Below are positions 1-30,441 of a stretch of 30,441 nt of DNA, in pieces; position 1 is the stretch's first letter; every line of letters starts with the position of its first letter. The DNA comes from a virus (taxonomy: Duplodnaviria; Heunggongvirae; Uroviricota; Caudoviricetes). The DNA lies in IMG/VR virus record IMGVR_UViG_2563366799_000003. The stretch is one strand, 5' to 3'. The translations under genes and the position numbers were made by a program. Below the pieces are notes generated by a model. That model did no database searches, had not been told where the DNA came from, and worked only from the letters and a program-made list of their open reading frames with translations.

Positions 1-2
1 TG

Positions 3-1982
3 GATTTCTGGGTTACCGCAAAAGAATGCGTAGGAATTTGTTCTTTTCCTAATGCAGAAAAGAACGTCAGAAAACATTTGGAGTCTTTTGTCAGTGGACG
101 TAGTGAACTACGCCGTAAACGTGCTGGCACCAAAGCATTCGAATACCACATATCGGTGTTGCCACCTGAAGTCCGCGCTGAACTGCTGGCCGCACGTGGC
201 CTGATTGAAACATCATCCGGGCTGATTACATTGCCACAGGAGCCTGAGCGCGTGGCGGCTGACGATCTGGAACGCCAGCGACTGTGGTCTGCATGGGAGA
301 AAGCTACCGGCGAGCAGCGTCTGCATGCAGAACGCCGGACTAAAGCTGCCGCGCTGGTGGCGGAACTGATGGCTTCCGGCATCGGCAATCGTAAGGCGAT
401 CACGCTGGCAGCAAAACAGCTGCAAATCAGTGAAGGTACGCTGCGCAATCTTTACTACAAAGTCAAAGACCATAGTCCTGACCTCTGGGGTCCGGTACTG
501 CTTGACCGCCGTGTGCGTGAAAAACGTCAGACTGGCCGGACTGCCGATATCTCTGAAGATGCCTGGCAGTTCTTCCTGGGCGATTATCTGCGAAACGAAG
601 CGCCGTTCTTCTCCAAAAGCTATGAGCGCCTTGAAAAGGCGGCAGATGCTCATGGCTGGATTATTCCCGCTGAGCGCACTCTGCGCCGCAAGCTAGAACG
701 TGAAGTTGATCCGCGTATCGTCGTTGCCACCCGTGAGGGCGAGAACGCGCTGGCGCAGATGTATCCGTCGCAGCAGCGCACCGTGGCATATCTTCATGCG
801 ATGGAGTGGATCAATGGCGACGGTTACCAGCACAACGTGTTTGTCCGTTGGTTTAACGGCGACATCATCCGTCCTAAAACGTGGTTCTGGCAGGATGTCC
901 ACAGTCGCAAAATTATTGGCTGGCGTGCTGATTTGTCGGAGAACAGTGACAGCATCCGTTTATCCCTGATGGATACCATCCGCGCTTACGGTAAGCCTAA
1001 ACATGTGACCATCGATAACACCCGCGCTGCTGCAAATAAATGGCTGTCCGGTGGCGTTCCTAACCGTTACCGCTTCAAAGTCAAACCTGATGACCCGATG
1101 GGGATCATCCCTCTGCTGGGAATGAAGCTGCACTGGACGGGGGTGATTGGCGGTAAGGGCTGGGGACAGGCAAAGCCCGTTGAACGTGCCTTCGGCGTGG
1201 GCGGTCTGGGCGAATATATCGACAAACATCCTGCGCTGGCTGGAGCATTTGCCGGTGAAAACGTCAGCTCCAAGCCAGAGAACTACGGCAGCCGGGCGGT
1301 GGATGTGGATACATTCCTGGAAACCATCAGCGAAGGTGTCGCCATGTTCAACGCGAAGGCCGGGCGCGAGACCGAGATGTGCCGGGGGGAACTGTCCTTC
1401 GACCAGGCGTTTGAGCGCAGCTACAGCCAGTCAGTCATCACCCGTATGACCGAAGAGCAAATTCGTCAACTGATGCTGCCTGCGGAAGCTGTACGCGTGA
1501 AGACTACAGGCGAATTTACGATGGAGTGCGGGGGCTCGTTATTTGGCCGTAAGAATACTTACTGGAGTGAACAGCTCGTCAGCCACCGCTCGCGCAAAAT
1601 CACCGTCCGGTTTGATCCAAGGAACCTGCACGGAGAAGTCGCCTGTTATGACCTCGACGGCCGTTTCCTTTGCATGGCTGAGTGTCGTGCCGCCGTGGCC
1701 TTTGGCGATACCGAGGCTGGACGTGAACACAACCGTGCACGCCGCGAGATGATCAAGAGTACGAAGAAAGCGACTAAGGCTCTGAACCGTATGACGGCGA
1801 TTGAGGTGAATGACCTGCTGCCGAAGACTGAGCATGCAGAACTGCCGGAGCGGCATGTGGTGGAGCGTGTATTTACCCTGGGCAACACCGTCAAGCGCGT
1901 GGAGGACATACAGGAAACGCAGAGCGAAAACGACGTTATTTTCCAGCAGTTTGTTAATAAGGCTAAACAGGCACGGAAATAA
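3..1982 (+). CDS. A: Mu A-type DDE transposase, 5'-truncated by window edge
   Basis: Frame is open from base 3 to the window start (DFWVTAKEC... precedes the ORF-track Met at 78) and aligns from about residue 4 of MuA as I recall it; catalytic-core motifs WINGDGY, ITIDNTRAAANKW and GQAKPVERAFG (DDE) are present. Confidence 0.92.
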   Translation, partial: DFWVTAKECVGICSFPNAEKNVRKHLESFVSGRSELRRKRAGTKAFEYHISVLPPEVRAELLAARGLIETSSGLITLPQEPERVAADDLERQRLWSAWEKATGEQRLHAERRTKAAALVAELMASGIGNRKAITLAAKQLQISEGTLRNLYYKVKDHSPDLWGPVLLDRRVREKRQTGRTADISEDAWQFFLGDYLRNEAPFFSKSYERLEKAADAHGWIIPAERTLRRKLEREVDPRIVVATREGENALAQMYPSQQRTVAYLHAMEWINGDGYQHNVFVRWFNGDIIRPKTWFWQDVHSRKIIGWRADLSENSDSIRLSLMDTIRAYGKPKHVTIDNTRAAANKWLSGGVPNRYRFKVKPDDPMGIIPLLGMKLHWTGVIGGKGWGQAKPVERAFGVGGLGEYIDKHPALAGAFAGENVSSKPENYGSRAVDVDTFLETISEGVAMFNAKAGRETEMCRGELSFDQAFERSYSQSVITRMTEEQIRQLMLPAEAVRVKTTGEFTMECGGSLFGRKNTYWSEQLVSHRSRKITVRFDPRNLHGEVACYDLDGRFLCMAECRAAVAFGDTEAGREHNRARREMIKSTKKATKALNRMTAIEVNDLLPKTEHAELPERHVVERVFTLGNTVKRVEDIQETQSENDVIFQQFVNKAKQARK

Positions 1983-2077: not shown

Positions 2078-3016
2078 ATGACGCAAATTAACCATGATGT
2101 TGTGCGCAGTGCCATTCGTGAACTTATCGACAGCAAGACGATTTCCGGTGCAGCGCTGGCGCGTGAGACCGGTACATCAACCGCGACGGTTTCACAGTTC
2201 CTGAACGGGAAATACAAAGGTGACAATGACACCGTAGCTGCCAGCCTGAATACCTGGCTTGAAAGTCACAACGCCGCGAAAACCACGCTTCCGGTGGCCC
2301 CTGATTTCGTTGAGACACCGACCTCTCAGAAAATCCTCGCCACCCTGACGTGGGCGCAGCTGGCCGGGACGATTGTGCTGGTTTACGGCAATCCGGGCGT
2401 GGGTAAGACAAAGGCTATCCGGCAGTATGCCGCAGGCGGTAATAACGTCTGGCACATCACCGCCAGCAAATCCCGCAGCAATGAGCTGGAGACCCTGTAT
2501 GAACTGGCCCTGAAAATGGGCATCAGCGATGCGCCATACCGCCGTGGTGCACTCTCTCGCCTGCTGCGCCAGCGTCTGCCGGACACGCGCGGCCTGATAG
2601 TGGTGGATGAAGCCGACTGGCTGAGTCTGGATGCGGTGGAAGAGCTGCGTATTCTCCAGGAGGAATGTGGCGTGGGGCTGGCACTGGTGGGTAACCACAA
2701 GGTCTATGACCGTCTTACCGGCGGCCAGCGCAGCGTGGATTTTGCCCGCCTGTTCTCCCGCGTGTCCAAGAAGTACGTCATCAATACCGTTTCCGCTGGT
2801 GACGTGGACAGCTTCTGCGATGCCTGGCAGGTCACCGGCGCTGACGAACGCAAGCTGCTGAAGGCTATCGCCCGACGTCCGGGGGCGCTGCGTTCTCTGT
2901 CGCACATCCTGCCGCTGGCCGGAATTTACGCTCAGGGCAAGGGTGAGACCATTGGCACGGCGCACATCCAGTCCGCCATGCTGGAGCTGGGCCACAGCGG
3001 TATCGGAGAGGAGTGA
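2078..3016 (+). CDS. B: Mu B-type transposition ATPase (AAA+ target DNA activator)
   Basis: 312 aa, directly downstream of A; Walker A GNPGVGKT and Walker B LIVVDEAD; N-terminal HTH-like segment; ATG at 2078 preceded by an AT-rich leader. Confidence 0.9.
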   Translation: MTQINHDVVRSAIRELIDSKTISGAALARETGTSTATVSQFLNGKYKGDNDTVAASLNTWLESHNAAKTTLPVAPDFVETPTSQKILATLTWAQLAGTIVLVYGNPGVGKTKAIRQYAAGGNNVWHITASKSRSNELETLYELALKMGISDAPYRRGALSRLLRQRLPDTRGLIVVDEADWLSLDAVEELRILQEECGVGLALVGNHKVYDRLTGGQRSVDFARLFSRVSKKYVINTVSAGDVDSFCDAWQVTGADERKLLKAIARRPGALRSLSHILPLAGIYAQGKGETIGTAHIQSAMLELGHSGIGEE

Positions 3017-26638: not shown

Positions 26639-27704
26639 CGTTCCCGCGCTGCGCAAGCTTATTACTGACGGCGAAAAAGATATTGCCTTTGAACTGGGGC
26701 TGCAAAAACTTCCGCCAGTAGGCGTTGAGAAAGCTCTAAATACCTCATTCAGCAATCAGGTTCGTGATTTATACGACCATCAGAGCTGGATTAAAGACCA
26801 GATTATTCCGTCTGTTAAATCTGATGATGAAACCATCATTGAGACTGCGGCCAGCGAAGGCGTCGTCAGAAAACAGGCCACGTTTGCTACGGGGCCGGCG
26901 GTATTTAAAGGGAATACACCGCTGCCGGAAGATATGGAGATGCAAACCGCTACCGGTATTGTTTATGCCGTGACGACTTCCGGCGTTCCTGTAGATGGGG
27001 TCATGACTGTAACCATTCAGGCCAGCGATGCCGGCGCGTCAGGAAACCTTCCGGAAGGTGAAAGCCTGACCCTGCTGTCCCCCGTTCCCGGCGTGGAAAG
27101 TATTGGTTTAACGGGTACGGGAGGCATCATCGGTGGTTCGGATATTGAGCCAGTTTCTGAATTGCTTGACCGGCTTTTATTCCGTAAACGCAATCCCCCC
27201 GTTGGTGGGGCTGTGCATGACTATGTCATCTGGGCGCGAGAAATGGCTGGTGTCAGTCGGGCGTGGGCATTTGATGCCTGGCATGGTCCCTGCACAATCG
27301 GACTGGCATGGGTTTATGACGATCGTTCAGTGATTACCCCCGGATATCAGGACCGGAAAAATATGGAAGATTACCTTTTCCGTCATACCGACCCGGCGAC
27401 TGGCGTATGGGTTGGTAAACCTGGAGGAATAGAAGTCTGGCCCGTGGAACTGGTGCTCCGTCCCGTCAATATGATTATTGGCATAACACCGGATACACCG
27501 GCCACGCGTAAAGCTGTCCAGTCCCGCCTGTTGACGCTTCAGAAGACGCTGCAACCAGGACAAACGCTGCCCATTTCAGCGATTCGCACTGCTATCGGCA
27601 CCGCATCTGGCGTGACGGATTACACGCTGAATCTGACCGCTGACATTCCCTGTGCTCAGAATGAACTTATCACTATCGGAGTGCTGACATGGCCCACAGT
27701 GTAG
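26628..27704 (+). CDS. baseplate J-like protein (Mu gp47)
   Basis: 358 aa; overlaps neighbours; size and order typical of baseplate wedge J. Confidence 0.8.
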   Translation: MPYNVPALRKLITDGEKDIAFELGLQKLPPVGVEKALNTSFSNQVRDLYDHQSWIKDQIIPSVKSDDETIIETAASEGVVRKQATFATGPAVFKGNTPLPEDMEMQTATGIVYAVTTSGVPVDGVMTVTIQASDAGASGNLPEGESLTLLSPVPGVESIGLTGTGGIIGGSDIEPVSELLDRLLFRKRNPPVGGAVHDYVIWAREMAGVSRAWAFDAWHGPCTIGLAWVYDDRSVITPGYQDRKNMEDYLFRHTDPATGVWVGKPGGIEVWPVELVLRPVNMIIGITPDTPATRKAVQSRLLTLQKTLQPGQTLPISAIRTAIGTASGVTDYTLNLTADIPCAQNELITIGVLTWPTV

Positions 27705-28279
27705 ATGAATGGCTGGGCGCTTTATGGCAGGTCATGCCACGTGGCAAAGCGTGGTCACGCGATGAGGATGGTGATTTAAACCGTTTTTTACGGGCGTTAG
27801 CCAGGCGTTTAAGTCAGACGGAATTTGATGCAGAAAACCTGCTACCGGAGATGCGGCCAGAAACAACATTTATGCTGCTGGAAGAATGGGAGGAATACCT
27901 TGAACTGCCGGAGTGTGGGCAGTTAAGCGGTACTGTAGAAGACCGACGTCGTGCTGTCGTGGAGAAGTATCACCGCAAAGGTGGCCTTTCCCCGTGGCAG
28001 ATTGAAGCTGTGGCTGCCGCGCTTGGATTTACTATCCGGGTTACTGTCATTCTGCCTCACCACTGCATGCGTAGCTGCGTGTATCCCCTTTATCCAGCTC
28101 GTTATCGCTGGACGTTACAGATTGATGTGATCGGTATCAACGGCGGACGTTTTACCTGTATCGATAACGTCATGACACCGCTTCTGAGCGAACTTGCAAG
28201 AGAACTGGAGTGTGTGCTGACGAAATACCGTCTCGGCGGCACAGCATACGAATATTTTTATTCTTCAGGAGATAACTGA
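27689..28279 (+). CDS. tail protein (Mu gp48 / P2 gpI-like, DUF2313-type)
   Basis: 196 aa immediately upstream of the tail-fibre gene with a 1-nt overlap. Confidence 0.7.
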   Translation: MAHSVDEWLGALWQVMPRGKAWSRDEDGDLNRFLRALARRLSQTEFDAENLLPEMRPETTFMLLEEWEEYLELPECGQLSGTVEDRRRAVVEKYHRKGGLSPWQIEAVAAALGFTIRVTVILPHHCMRSCVYPLYPARYRWTLQIDVIGINGGRFTCIDNVMTPLLSELARELECVLTKYRLGGTAYEYFYSSGDN

Positions 28280-29049
28280 TGTTTCACGTAGATAATTCAA
28301 CCGGTGTTCCGGTTATGCCACAACCGTCTCCTGTCACCAGTGAGACCGAGCTTTTCTTTACTGAAGGAGGTAATGGCGTTCCTCCGACGTATCCCGGACC
28401 GGACTGGTTTAATGTCATTCAAAGCGAGCTGCTCAATATTCTCAAGGCCGCTGGGATTGATCCTGACAAAATGGACAACACGCAGATTCTGGTCGCTCTC
28501 AAAAAACTGTTTCTGAGTCGTTCCAATCCATTTGGCGACATTAAAGCAGATGGTGCGGCAGCAATCGCGGCGGCTCTCACAAACCTTGATTTGGGAGAAG
28601 GCTCAGCGTTACCAGTTGGCGTCCCTGTACCATATCCACTGGCTACACCACCAACCGGCTGGATGAAATGCAATGGTTCATCTTTCAACCTGGCTAGTTA
28701 CCCTAAACTTGCCGCCGTGTTTCCTTCTGGTGTGCTTCCAGACCTGCGCGGTGAGTTTATCCGTGGATGGGATGATGGTCGCAATGTAGATTCGGGGCGA
28801 CAATTATTATCACAACAAGGTGATACCATTCAGAACATTACAGGTGAGGTCGGAGTTATTCAGTATGTAGGCCCGAGTCACACAACAGGGGCGCTTTATA
28901 ATGGAGGGGCGCAATGGAAGACTGTAACCACAGATGGCGGGAGTACCGTTGCTCAAAGTGTTTTTTTTGATGCATCCAGATCGGCACGGACATCAAATGA
29001 GACACGCTCTCGAAATATCGCATTCAACTACATTGTAAGGGCAGCATAA
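28279..29049 (+). CDS. tail fibre protein S (constant N-terminus plus currently expressed variable C-terminus with tail-collar-like domain)
   Basis: 256 aa; segment TGWMKCNGSSFNLASYPKLAAVFPSGVLPDLRGEFIRGWDDGR resembles a phage tail-collar domain; contains a hix/gix-like site at 28574-28599. Confidence 0.8.
   Translation: MFHVDNSTGVPVMPQPSPVTSETELFFTEGGNGVPPTYPGPDWFNVIQSELLNILKAAGIDPDKMDNTQILVALKKLFLSRSNPFGDIKADGAAAIAAALTNLDLGEGSALPVGVPVPYPLATPPTGWMKCNGSSFNLASYPKLAAVFPSGVLPDLRGEFIRGWDDGRNVDSGRQLLSQQGDTIQNITGEVGVIQYVGPSHTTGALYNGGAQWKTVTTDGGSTVAQSVFFDASRSARTSNETRSRNIAFNYIVRAA
28574..28599 (+). other. candidate serine-invertase crossover site (hix/gix-like 12-2-12 dyad) inside the tail-fibre gene
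   Basis: CTCTCACAAACC-TT-GATTTGGGAGAA: arms match each other at 9/12 in inverted orientation with an AAACC-NN-GnTTT core; 12/13 bases of the right arm recur inverted at 30429-30441. Confidence 0.45.
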
Positions 29050-29657
29050 TGAGCGAGAAAGAAATCACCTTAGACGAAAACGGGTTTGCCACGGAAGCTG
29101 GCTTTATTACCGTTTACAACTACAACGGCGAAACGCGGGAATATATTTCTTCATCGCTCGAATTCCTGCCTTTTGGTGTTGGCGTTCCAGGTAATTCATG
29201 CGCGGACGCACCAATACGCAAAAAAGAAGGTTTCGCCATCTGCCGGAAAGCCGATTTAACTGGTTGGGAATACGTTGCAGACCATCGAGGCGAAACGGTT
29301 TACAGGACAGCTACTGGCCAACCCGTGACTGTTTCACAGTTGGGAGAATACCCAGAAGGAACAACCACCACTTCGCCATCCACACCATACGACAAATGGG
29401 ATGGCCAAAAATGGGTGACAGATACTGAGGCACAACACGGTGCCGCAGTAGAAGCGGCAGAAGCACAGCGCCATTCACTGATTGATGCAGCAATGGCTTC
29501 CATTAGTCTGATTCAGCTGAAATTACAGGCCGGACGTAAACTGACGCAGGCAGAAACAACCAGACTTAACGCTGTGCTGGATTACATTGACGCGGTGACG
29601 GCAACAGATACCAGCACCTCGCCGGATGTCATCTGGCCTGAACTGCCGGAGGCGTAG
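29049..29657 (+). CDS. tail fibre assembly protein (U-like)
   Basis: 202 aa; TAATG overlap with S; C-terminal motif LDYIDAVTATDTSTSPDVIWPELP is shared with the convergent minus-strand paralogue. Confidence 0.8.
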   Translation: MSEKEITLDENGFATEAGFITVYNYNGETREYISSSLEFLPFGVGVPGNSCADAPIRKKEGFAICRKADLTGWEYVADHRGETVYRTATGQPVTVSQLGEYPEGTTTTSPSTPYDKWDGQKWVTDTEAQHGAAVEAAEAQRHSLIDAAMASISLIQLKLQAGRKLTQAETTRLNAVLDYIDAVTATDTSTSPDVIWPELPEA

Positions 29658-30069
29658 GCCATTCAATATCTGGAGCACTGGAGGTATCAACCAGTTCCAG
29701 TGCGTCCAGATAATCCAGCCACAAATTATATTGCGCCAGTTCCTCACCTTTCAGACGACCAATAGCCGCTTTACCAGGCCATTGTTTACTGTTCATATAA
29801 TCGTTGGCCTGATTAATCAATTGCTGCTTCTCCAATTCGGCTGCAGCAATTTGTTCCTCATGTGTTGGTGGTGGAATTTCAGACCATGCAGGAAAACCAT
29901 TTTCTCCAGCGATACGGATTTTTCCTTTCGGCGGTAATCCGGAAAACTCAATATACACTTGCTCATCAACTTCAACAGCATCATCTGGCCATGAGTCAGC
30001 TTGAGTGTAATCCTCTTTCATCTCCAGCGGATAGAAAGAGTTTGTAGTCGCGGAATATATGTAATTCAT
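29629..30069 (-). CDS. alternative tail fibre assembly protein (U'-like) in inverted orientation
   Basis: 146 aa on minus strand; C-terminus LDYLDALELVDTSSAPDIEWPTPP parallels the plus-strand protein; GGAG ribosome-binding site upstream on minus strand. Confidence 0.75.
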   Translation of the reverse strand: MNYIYSATTNSFYPLEMKEDYTQADSWPDDAVEVDEQVYIEFSGLPPKGKIRIAGENGFPAWSEIPPPTHEEQIAAAELEKQQLINQANDYMNSKQWPGKAAIGRLKGEELAQYNLWLDYLDALELVDTSSAPDIEWPTPPAVQAR

Positions 30070-30090
30070 TTTTCACTCCATATAGCTAAA

Positions 30091-30441
30091 TTAACAGCCT
30101 AACGCTAAAAATGAAGCGCCGAGGCCAGGAGTACTGGCTCTGGATATAAATTTAACCGGGTCGGGACTAAAACCTGCACAGGCAATATAACCAACAGCCC
30201 CGCTATCTGGTGTGTAGTCTTGTGAGACCAAAACACGCAGACATCTGTTTGGAAATGCAATCGGGAAATGGGTTACTACATCCTGTGCAATGCCTGGTGC
30301 GCCGATTGAGCCCCACTGAAGAATAAAACCTGATGGTAATTTTTGATATCCAGTACCTGAAACAGAAAGCGTGAAGCTACCCATATCAGGTATCTGATTC
30401 GCCCCTGTCCCTACATTCCTTTTAGCCGCTTCTCCCAAACC
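30091..30441 (-). CDS. alternative tail-fibre variable C-terminal segment (S'v-like), frame open to window end, no own start
   Basis: Minus-strand frame is open through 30441 (ORF-track Met at 30438 is a TTG); begins with the same in-frame LGE codons (TTG GGA GAA) as S at the crossover site. Confidence 0.65.
30429..30441 (-). other. partial right-hand invertase crossover site (inverted copy), truncated by window end
   Basis: CTTCTCCCAAACC is the reverse complement of GGTTTGGGAGAAG, matching S-gene 28588-28600 (GATTTGGGAGAAG) at 12/13. Confidence 0.4.

Follow-up and report, generated by a model that had tools for sequence, protein, structure and literature searches.

The window, a 30,441-nucleotide stretch of tailed-phage DNA, very probably carries a Pin/Gin-type (Din-family) site-specific inversion switch in the tail-fiber operon of a Mu-like transposable Escherichia coli prophage. 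It is a genuine case of a kind of phage host-range switch already known from textbooks. Its crossover sites, its reading frames, an invertase in identical sequences, and both isomers with the exchange at the core were all observed (Table 1). A 26-bp site divides the fiber gene: residues 1-103, on the baseplate side, stay constant, and the tip varies. In the proposed mechanism, a small serine invertase, whose gene lies immediately to the right of the segment, would pair this left site with its inverted counterpart at a distance of 1,856 bp, cut both TT/AA cores, and rejoin them after a 180-degree rotation. One orientation specifies S (256 aa, collar-type tip) and then U, the other S' (219 aa, gp53-like tip) and then U'. 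A lysogen population should accordingly release virions with one or the other of two receptor-binding tips. From Mu, P1, and e14 we infer that the two tips recognize different receptors and that inversion needs a Fis-bound enhancer in the 5' part of the invertase gene; the presumed switching rate is likewise borrowed from these precedents. The prophage appears to be largely complete, with transposase, MuB, terminase, portal, head, sheath, tape measure, and baseplate functions.

Table 1. Features of the fiber switch (window coordinates unless indicated)
Feature	Position	Strand	Remarks
gp48-like baseplate gene	27689..28279	+	Directly 5' of S; Pfam Phage_Mu_Gp48, E = 1.5e-30
S, tail-fiber gene expressed in the window's orientation	28279..29049	+	ORF, 256 aa; Pfam Collar
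Sc, constant fiber part (residues 1-103)	28279..28587	+	Outside the invertible segment
Left crossover site	28574..28599	.	CTCTCACAAACC-TT-GATTTGGGAGAA; 26 bp; core TT 28586-28587
Invertible segment	28587..30441	.	1,856 bp core center to core center; ends at window-equivalent 30442
Sv, variable fiber C terminus, collar type (S residues 104-256)	28588..29049	+	46% identical to e14 stfE
U, assembly protein paired with Sv	29049..29657	+	202 aa; Caudo_TAP, E = 3.6e-30
U', assembly protein paired with S'v	29629..30069	-	146 aa; Caudo_TAP, E = 1.9e-38
S'v, gp53-like alternative fiber C terminus, silent here	30091..30441	-	Gp53-like_C, E = 3.7e-15
Right-site inner half	30430..30441	.	TTCTCCCAAACC; final 12 bases of the window, which has no second exact copy
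Serine invertase gene	L003 8232-8786 = window-equivalent 30510-31064		Domains Resolvase+HTH_7

The initial annotation had placed a 12-2-12 dyad at the LTNLDLGE codons of S. The dyad is present there: the left site spans codons L100 to E107, with 9 of 12 positions matching in its internal dyad. A scan of the window for Pin-type 26-mers with up to three mismatches returned this site as its sole match, and none of 100 shuffled sequences contained one. The e14 left site, CTCTCGAAAACCTTGGTTTGGGAGAA, differs from it at 3 of 26 positions, and the inner half-site deviates once (GATTTG versus GGTTTG in e14). In full, the right site reads TTCTCCCAAACC-AA-CGTTTTCGATAA (30430-30455); its final 14 nt, i.e., the core AA and the outer half CGTTTTCGATAA just past the window at window-equivalent 30442-30455, were read from the 100%-identical public sequence L003. 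Scans for sites and half-sites found no more of either within 28600-30429. As there are two sites only, a multiple-inversion arrangement (Min of p15B, or shufflon-like) was ruled out. The 11-nt perfect inverted repeat common to both sites is not above chance on its own, and chance inverted repeats of 10 to 13 nt also occur in the same 2.2 kb. The significance of the sites thus derives from the match to the family site, from position and frame, and from the database evidence, rather than from the repeat itself. Exchange at the TT/AA core joins S residues 1-103 in frame, via G-LGE, to 112 further residues (219 aa in total), so that the frames fit the anticipated fusion of a constant part of about 105 aa to an alternative C terminus of about 112 aa.

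All four coding regions lie where they had been annotated, S and U on the plus strand facing U' and S'v on the minus strand. The gp48-like gene preceding S is 34% identical to Mu gp48, and its stop codon overlaps the S start codon (TGATG). S residues 1-115 match Mu S in PDB entries 5YVQ and 8JU3 (E about 1e-19), residues 74-254 match a phage short tail fiber (PDB 9CUY, E = 3e-27), and the Collar domain occupies residues 114-161; a search of NCBIfam returned no family for S or S'v. Sc, a homologue of the Mu S N terminus, is the same in the S and S' forms. For Sv, similarity to other phages starts no more than about 7 nt from where the left site begins (query 876-882, corresponding to window 28575-28581).

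The Collar domain of Sv and the Gp53-like_C domain of S'v are unrelated families; S'v has weak PDB matches to the short tail fiber gp92 (9ZD7), AP22 gp53 (4MTM), and the R1 pyocin fiber (6CXB). U is 75% identical to e14 TfaE and found no match in a PDB sequence search, and residues 51-146 of U' are 61% identical to e14 TfaP. The convergent overlap reported for the 3' ends of U and U' measures 29 nt (29629-29657). Two other claims stood in part. The S'v frame is open to the window edge and lacks a start of its own inside the window, but ATG codons occur 17 and 21 codons past the right site in the 100%-identical extension. The fiber, described as unusually short, is so relative to Mu S but not relative to e14 StfP (209 aa) and homologues; most of the best-scoring database homologues listed have 211 to 214 aa, and a short fiber is normal for the e14-type class.

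A serine invertase gene and the full right site had been expected downstream. Both were found, beyond the window, in public E. coli sequences (L003, L004, and L005) that are 100% identical to its last 8 kb; what is said here of the invertase and of the right site's outer half is taken from such identical sequences. A scan of viral contigs with a 50-mer from Sv yielded one IMG/VR contig (L017), identical over 10,439 nt (100%); as it extends through the invertase gene into the yidB flank, it is not the contig from which the window came. These extensions complete the right site, which is followed by a 54-bp gap and then by a gene for a 184-aa protein with Resolvase and HTH_7 domains. This invertase is 87% identical to PinE and 80% to Gin, and its residues 1-182 match the Gin crystal structure 3UJ3 (E = 6e-93). 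Position 9 of its N terminus (MLIGYVRVS) is a serine, presumably the catalytic one. The prophage ends about 65 bp 3' of the invertase stop codon.

In its 5' part, the invertase gene is strongly conserved relative to gin and pinE, a conservation that coding constraint could explain. This part contains two conserved G-N13-C motifs, GTATCAACAAATGAC and GTGCAGGATGTGAGC, whose centers are separated by 49 bp. Some 95 bp lie between the first motif and the site center, which fits the enhancer geometry described for such systems, i.e., about 100 bp from one site and within the 5' part of the invertase gene (PMC3798978). A search with the strict Fis motif (G-N2-Y-N7-R-N2-C) at 46- to 50-bp spacing found no pair that is conserved across all three of the window extension, Mu, and e14. 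Scanning the segment and the invertase flank for promoters and terminators gave nothing above shuffle expectation: neither the invertase nor the minus-strand frame yielded a promoter, and no terminator turned up between the two assembly genes. The window may plausibly end at a contig break that inversion caused: the de Bruijn branch arising from mixed orientations is expected after the core, at 30443, and the window stops at 30441.

Evidence for both orientations came from simulating the inversion at the 2-bp core and comparing the product with four independent public contigs (ENA and Logan assemblies). The simulated product is 100.000% identical to L007 (9,063 nt), L008 (5,186 nt), L009 (7,441 nt), and L010 (5,388 nt), in which the flanks are unchanged and the segment is inverted. 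In addition, the predicted 219-aa fusion is, residue for residue, the database protein P0001, in which S'v is fused to Sc. P0001 includes the change of D104 to G that the inner half-sites predict, which places the exchange within CTTG, i.e., at the core. Together, the exact contig matches and the exact fusion protein indicate that both orientations of the same prophage exist, as the initial annotation had proposed. The predicted switch of the coexpressed assembly protein is also borne out, since the inverted loci in L007, L008, and L010 carry S' (219 aa) with U' behind it on the plus strand, followed by minus-strand U and Sv. L008 and L003 share the same yidB-gyrB flank in opposite orientations and hence the same insertion site. 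On L012, a contig from one sequencing run, one end carries the Sc-S'v junction and the opposite end the Sc-Sv junction in reverse complement, which suggests that both orientations occurred in one sample. In a P2-like prophage, an 82%-identical cassette is inverted between the sibling strains E. coli 0H23 and 0H26. Collection blocks that index the exact S protein number 292, against 20 for S', an imbalance that could reflect slow or biased switching, or clonal sampling.

Inversion might serve another end. In the lysogen, the switch could act mainly on the host cell, the prophage fiber-tip protein blocking the receptors of other phages, but we consider this improbable. The source would be the "silent" tip, which by analogy with e14 could conceivably, if with low probability, yield a free receptor-binding fragment (129 or 166 aa) in lysogens. 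The minus-strand frame across the right site can start at ATG codons in the flank (MPFERL..., MAGIMPF...; window-equivalent 30480 or 30492), and a gene caller predicts products of 129 aa and 166 aa, one for each orientation. The ATG of this frame is conserved and lies in the 54-bp flank beside the invertase gene; the ATGCCAT motif is conserved in e14 and Mu, although it could belong to the invertase promoter instead. A precedent exists in e14, where the equivalent chimera StfE2, formed after P-segment inversion, is reported to block T2 adsorption (PMC12529663). Unlike e14, however, the prophage is apparently largely complete, which makes a role in the virion the simpler reading, and no promoter-like site was found for the minus-strand frame. 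If the host-cell role were true, one inversion would switch the host range of the virions together with the superinfection resistance of the host, and would do so in a Mu-like phage that appears intact.

It is very unlikely that the cassette is a frozen remnant of the G/P type that no longer switches here, with the database orientations representing old fixed alleles. The uneven representation of S and S' (292 versus 20 blocks) and the single deviation in the left inner half-site would be compatible with such a relic. However, the isomers are 100.000% identical over up to 9 kb save for the inversion, which argues for recent inversion events; the invertase is intact and shares 87% identity with PinE, an active enzyme, and junctions of both orientations occur on L012, from one sequencing run. 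We give almost no credence to homologous (RecA-type) recombination between short inverted repeats, or to assembly artifacts, as the source of the inversions, since, although the two sites share the 11-nt perfect inverted repeat and metagenome assemblers yield chimeras in this region (L011 and L012), 11 nt is far below the length for efficient RecA recombination, an A/G difference 2 nt inside the core travels with the segment and so places the exchange outside the repeat, at the core, as for 2-bp staggered cleavage, the inverted form appears in several independent assemblies, and a related cassette occurs in both orientations among complete genomes.

Site-specific inversion of the fiber tip by the adjacent invertase thus remains our preferred reading, and it adds a well-documented Pin/Gin-type fiber switch in a Mu-like E. 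coli prophage. The backbone has no close relative among the deposited phage genomes of the phage collection, the closest showing 74.6% identity over 32% of it. The P-segment cassette of e14 has been known chiefly from a defective element; here it sits in an apparently intact transposable phage, where a role in host range is testable. The current understanding of such switches is unchanged. For annotation, the fiber gene product should be given as 256 or 219 aa according to orientation. Metagenome assemblers produced chimeras at the switch region in L011 and L012; broken and chimeric contigs are therefore to be expected at the site in assembly and annotation.

The initial annotation described the inversion as G-segment-like. 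This holds for the type of switch, but the closest relative is the P segment of e14, with PinE, and not Mu G. The P segment of this defective E. coli K-12 prophage has the same gene order (stfP-tfaP-tfaE-stfE-pinE), and both switches lie downstream of baseplate J-like and gp48-like genes. The e14 right inner half-site and core are identical to those of the window, tfaP and tfaE overlap convergently by 29 nt as U' and U do here, and short fibers of about 210 to 260 aa are common to both. In experiments, PinE and PinQ are reported to invert the e14 segment (PMC12529663, PMC4272514). The two systems differ in their backbones, e14 being a defective lambdoid element and the present one an apparently largely complete Mu-like transposable prophage. 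The constant N terminus here is Mu S-like and 46% identical to e14 StfP across 87 residues; between S'v and the StfP tip, identity is only 27%. The window shows the "E-type" (collar) orientation, and the K-12 annotation the "P" orientation.

The Mu G segment (S/U, S'/U', gin, gix) occupies the same right-end position, after gp47 and gp48, and its 26-bp site, TTATCCAAAACC-TC-GGTTTACAGGAA, has the same half-site pattern, with a TC/GA core instead of TT/AA. The segment is shorter here (1.86 kb versus about 3 kb in Mu), as are Sc (103 versus 169 aa) and the whole fiber, which at 256 or 219 aa is without a shaft region (504 aa in Mu). No homology was detected between the variable tips and Mu Sv or S'v, and similarity of the Tfa proteins to those of Mu is at most weak (U' versus Mu U', 33% over 73 residues, E 9e-7). 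Unlike in Mu, no com or mom genes follow the invertase gene. Cin of P1 and Min of p15B belong to the same recombinase family and have the same site design, Min acting at several sites to give many isomers, in contrast to the two sites here. Hin/hix of Salmonella shares the recombinase family and the site design but inverts a promoter, whereas the present system inverts a coding tip. P2-like E. coli prophages (0H23/0H26, NRZ14408) carry cassettes 82 to 99% identical to parts of the segment, which adjoin a gene of the recombinase family and differ in orientation between sibling strains; there, the constant part is that of a long P2 H-type fiber (392 to 466 aa in total), and the flanking phage is unrelated.

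The analysis supports the identification of the fibre region as a Pin/Gin-type invertible fibre switch of the e14 P-segment type on a Mu-like backbone, a kind of system already well known, and demonstrates its two crossover sites, reading frames, invertase, both isomers and exchange at the core. The layout proposed in the initial annotation, with a fibre gene (S) and its assembly gene (U) facing minus-strand alternatives (U' and S'v) and with U and U' overlapping convergently (29 nt), was found as described, as was the hix/gix-like dyad within S. The Collar-type tip is similar to T4 gp37 and to the short tail fibre 9CUY, and the gp53-like tip to AP22 gp53 and a pyocin fibre. The two tips would be expected from the family to differ in receptor specificity, solely on the basis of their unrelated domain families. 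An 18-nt inverted repeat (29576-29593 and 29702-29719; 83% complementary) on either side of the U/U' overlap originates from the conserved LDYIDA/LDYLDA codons in both convergent assembly genes.

Coordinates of the fibre switch and of the transposase and MuB genes (window numbering unless another locus is named)
Feature	Position	Strand	Description
Mu transposase	78-1982		DDE_2, E = 8e-112
MuB	2078-3016		
S	28279-29049	+	256 aa, Collar domain; start overlaps gp48 stop codon
Left site	28574-28599		CTCTCACAAACC-TT-GATTTGGGAGAA, 26 bp, covering S codons L100-E107
U	29049-29657	+	202 aa, Caudo_TAP
U'	29629-30069	-	146 aa, Caudo_TAP
S'v frame	30091-30441	-	Gp53-like_C, open to window edge
54-bp flank	30456-30509 (window-equivalent); L003 8178-8231		

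A search for Pin-type palindromic 26-mers with up to 3 mismatches returned the left site as the sole match in 30.4 kb and none in 100 shuffled controls. The inner right half-site, TTCTCCCAAACC, occupies the final 12 bases of the window and has no other exact copy in it; allowing up to 2 mismatches gave six matches, three of them part of the two sites and none within the segment. By itself, the perfect 11-nt inverted repeat shared by the segment ends is unremarkable, as chance repeats of 10-13 nt are also present in the vicinity. The case for the site rests instead on the family-specific pattern, the frame, the downstream sequence and the inverted isomers.

The sequence beyond the right edge was recovered from loci retrieved by exact look-up of the S protein. 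These (L003, L004 and L005) match the final 8,000 bases of the window at 100% identity; L003 is the E. coli chromosome CP056396.1, with a gyrB flank 100% identical to E. coli gyrB. Identity with the IMG/VR contig L017 is complete over 10,439 nt. In these identical sequences the right site is completed by the core AA and, after it, the outer half-site CGTTTTCGATAA, and 54 bp further on lies a 184-aa gene with Resolvase and HTH_7 domains. Extension to the right, as the initial annotation had advised, thus yielded both the full right site and a serine invertase. The protein begins MLIGYVRVSTNDQN, and its serine 9 is the catalytic residue of this recombinase family. It matches the Gin crystal structure 3UJ3 over residues 1-182 (E = 6e-93) and shares 87% identity with e14 PinE and 80% with Mu Gin. 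Conservation with gin and pinE is high in the 5' part of the gene, for which coding constraint could account. Two G-N13-C motifs occur in this part; they are separated by 49 bp, and the one closer to the site is about 95 bp away from it. Such spacing agrees with the enhancer arrangement reported for hin (PMC3798978); a scan with a stricter Fis motif found no conserved pair. Judged by the family, inversion would be activated in a Fis-dependent manner.

Inversion was simulated between the two core centres on the window joined to its L003 continuation. The predicted fibre of the inverted form has 219 aa, with S residues 1-103 followed in frame by G-LGE and 112 more residues, which bears out the proposed fusion of a constant part of about 105 aa to an alternative C-terminus of about 112 aa. 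A protein search returned P0001, named by NCBI as an E. coli protein, which equals the prediction residue for residue. The contigs encoding it stem from ENA and Logan assemblies that are independent, and their identity to the simulated product is 100.000% over 9,063 (L007), 5,186 (L008), 7,441 (L009) and 5,388 nt (L010), so both forms of the same prophage are present in public sequences. L008 has the same yidB-gyrB flank as L003 in the opposite orientation. In the inverted loci, U' follows S' on the plus strand, the anticipated switch of co-expressed assembly protein, and U and Sv adjoin the invertase on the minus strand. The inner half-sites differ by one base (GATTTG versus GGTTTG; D104 in S, G104 in S'), and since this base moves with the segment, exchange must occur within CTTG, at the 2-bp core; this fits staggered cleavage by a serine invertase. 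Recombination inside the 11-nt repeat does not fit, since the differing base travels with the segment.

One 2.5-kb contig from a single run (L012, Logan SRR33441983) has Sc joined to S'v at the left and, as the reverse complement, Sc joined to Sv (...CCCAAATCAAGGTTTGTGAGA) at the other end. No single molecule should carry that path; the coexistence of both orientations in that sample is the best explanation, though no more than a suggestive one, as just 11 nt tell the readings apart. The exact S form occurs in 292 indexed blocks of the collection and S' in 20; slow or biased switching could explain the excess, as could clonal sampling. Some public contigs stop within U, L006 just past the 18-nt repeat and L009 and L013 further upstream, and the final 29 nt of L009 diverge; these ends suggest assembly problems across the segment.

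The S'v frame crosses the right site to ATGs in the 54-bp flank (minus-strand ORF, L003 7813-8202), with starts reading MPFERLTIIIENVGLGE... and, further upstream, MAGIMPF.... An ATGCCAT motif at the flank ATG is conserved in e14, where stfE begins MPFACYFF..., and in Mu; it may serve as the genuine start of the silent tip copy or belong to the invertase promoter. A receptor-blocking fragment has been claimed for e14 StfE2 (PMC12529663), and we consider it quite improbable that the crossing frame would be expressed likewise in lysogens.

Gene and domain content identify the window as most of one Mu-like transposable prophage, with endolysin, terminase, Mu portal, gpF, gpT major head protein, sheath, tape measure and baseplate (gp45 to gp48) genes; the fibre region follows directly. 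Both window ends are cut within the prophage. The left edge lies inside or just before the transposase gene (window 1-1982), and therefore the repressor, ner and the prophage left end are absent. On the right, an assembly break from mixed orientations is a plausible account of an end within the crossover site; we go no further than inferring it, because the predicted assembly-graph branch point lies 2 nt beyond the window end. The invertase is the final prophage gene, without com or mom, and the prophage ends about 65 bp past its stop at ...GCGCGCGGCA (L003 8787-8852 versus L004 and L001). Up to this point L003 and L004 are identical; thereafter their host genes differ, with yidB-gyrB flanking one prophage and fbaA-pgk the other. 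Identical prophages at different chromosomal places (these two and beside an IS66 element) are expected of a transposable Mu-like phage. Among about 50,700 deposited phage genomes, none is closely related to the backbone (window 8000-28570), and the top match is Klebsiella phage Kp4866-3 (74.6% identity over 32% of the query), despite which the prophage is common in E. coli assemblies.

Cassette matches in other phages start at window 28575-28581, about 7 nt or less from where the left site begins. The E. coli CAVP776 prophage (L001) is 99.6% identical up to about window 28677 and then carries a different Sv and N-terminal half of U, and a different S'v; identity is 94.8% over U's C-terminal half and most of U' (L001 5001-7800 versus window 28677-30441). 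The segment thus acts as an exchangeable module. Cassettes are swapped here within an otherwise identical prophage, and the N-terminal half of U changes together with the fibre tip. In a P2-like prophage of the sibling complete genomes E. coli 0H23 and 0H26 (L018/L019), an 82%-identical cassette is inverted between the two; among sibling strains, one carries it one way and five the other, with annotated fibres of 392 and 427 aa in the two forms. In an ENA scaffold (L011; ERZ28577046 scaffold_11377, 1704-2908), an approximately 99% identical Sv tip is joined, at the far side of the segment and through the site TTCTCCAATACC-TT-GGTTTGGGAGAA, to a different constant part; the resulting fibre has 297 aa and begins MAINNFKPFALDPNANV.... 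The scaffold represents either a chimeric assembly of two cassette-sharing phages or a second phage in the sample with the same tip.

The Mu G segment shares the phage type, location and invertase family, a site of the same design (TTATCCAAAACC-TC-GGTTTACAGGAA) and a homologous S N-terminus (PDB 5YVQ and 8JU3, E about 1e-19). Mu S differs in its 169-aa constant part, its long shaft (504 aa for the whole fibre) and its unrelated tips. The P segment of e14, a defective prophage of E. coli K-12, is the closest system known; experiments have demonstrated its inversion by PinE and also by PinQ (PMC4272514; PMC12529663). Its gene order is jayE, ymfQ (gp48-like), stfP (209 aa), tfaP, tfaE (-), stfE (-) and pinE, its sites are CTCTCGAAAACC-TT-GGTTTGGGAGAA and TTCTCCCAAACC-AA-CGTTTATGAAAA, with repeats given as TTGGTTTGGGAGAAGG (PMC12529663), and tfaP and tfaE overlap by 29 nt, like U and U'. 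Identities to the e14 proteins are 75% for U with TfaE, 61% for U' with TfaP and 46% for Sv with stfE. The best-scoring S' homologues in the database are mostly 211-214 aa, with several different constant parts of about 100 aa. The fibre had been called unusually short; it is indeed shorter than Mu S but not unusual, since e14 stfP and most top S' homologues are about as short, which makes this length a trait of the e14-type class.
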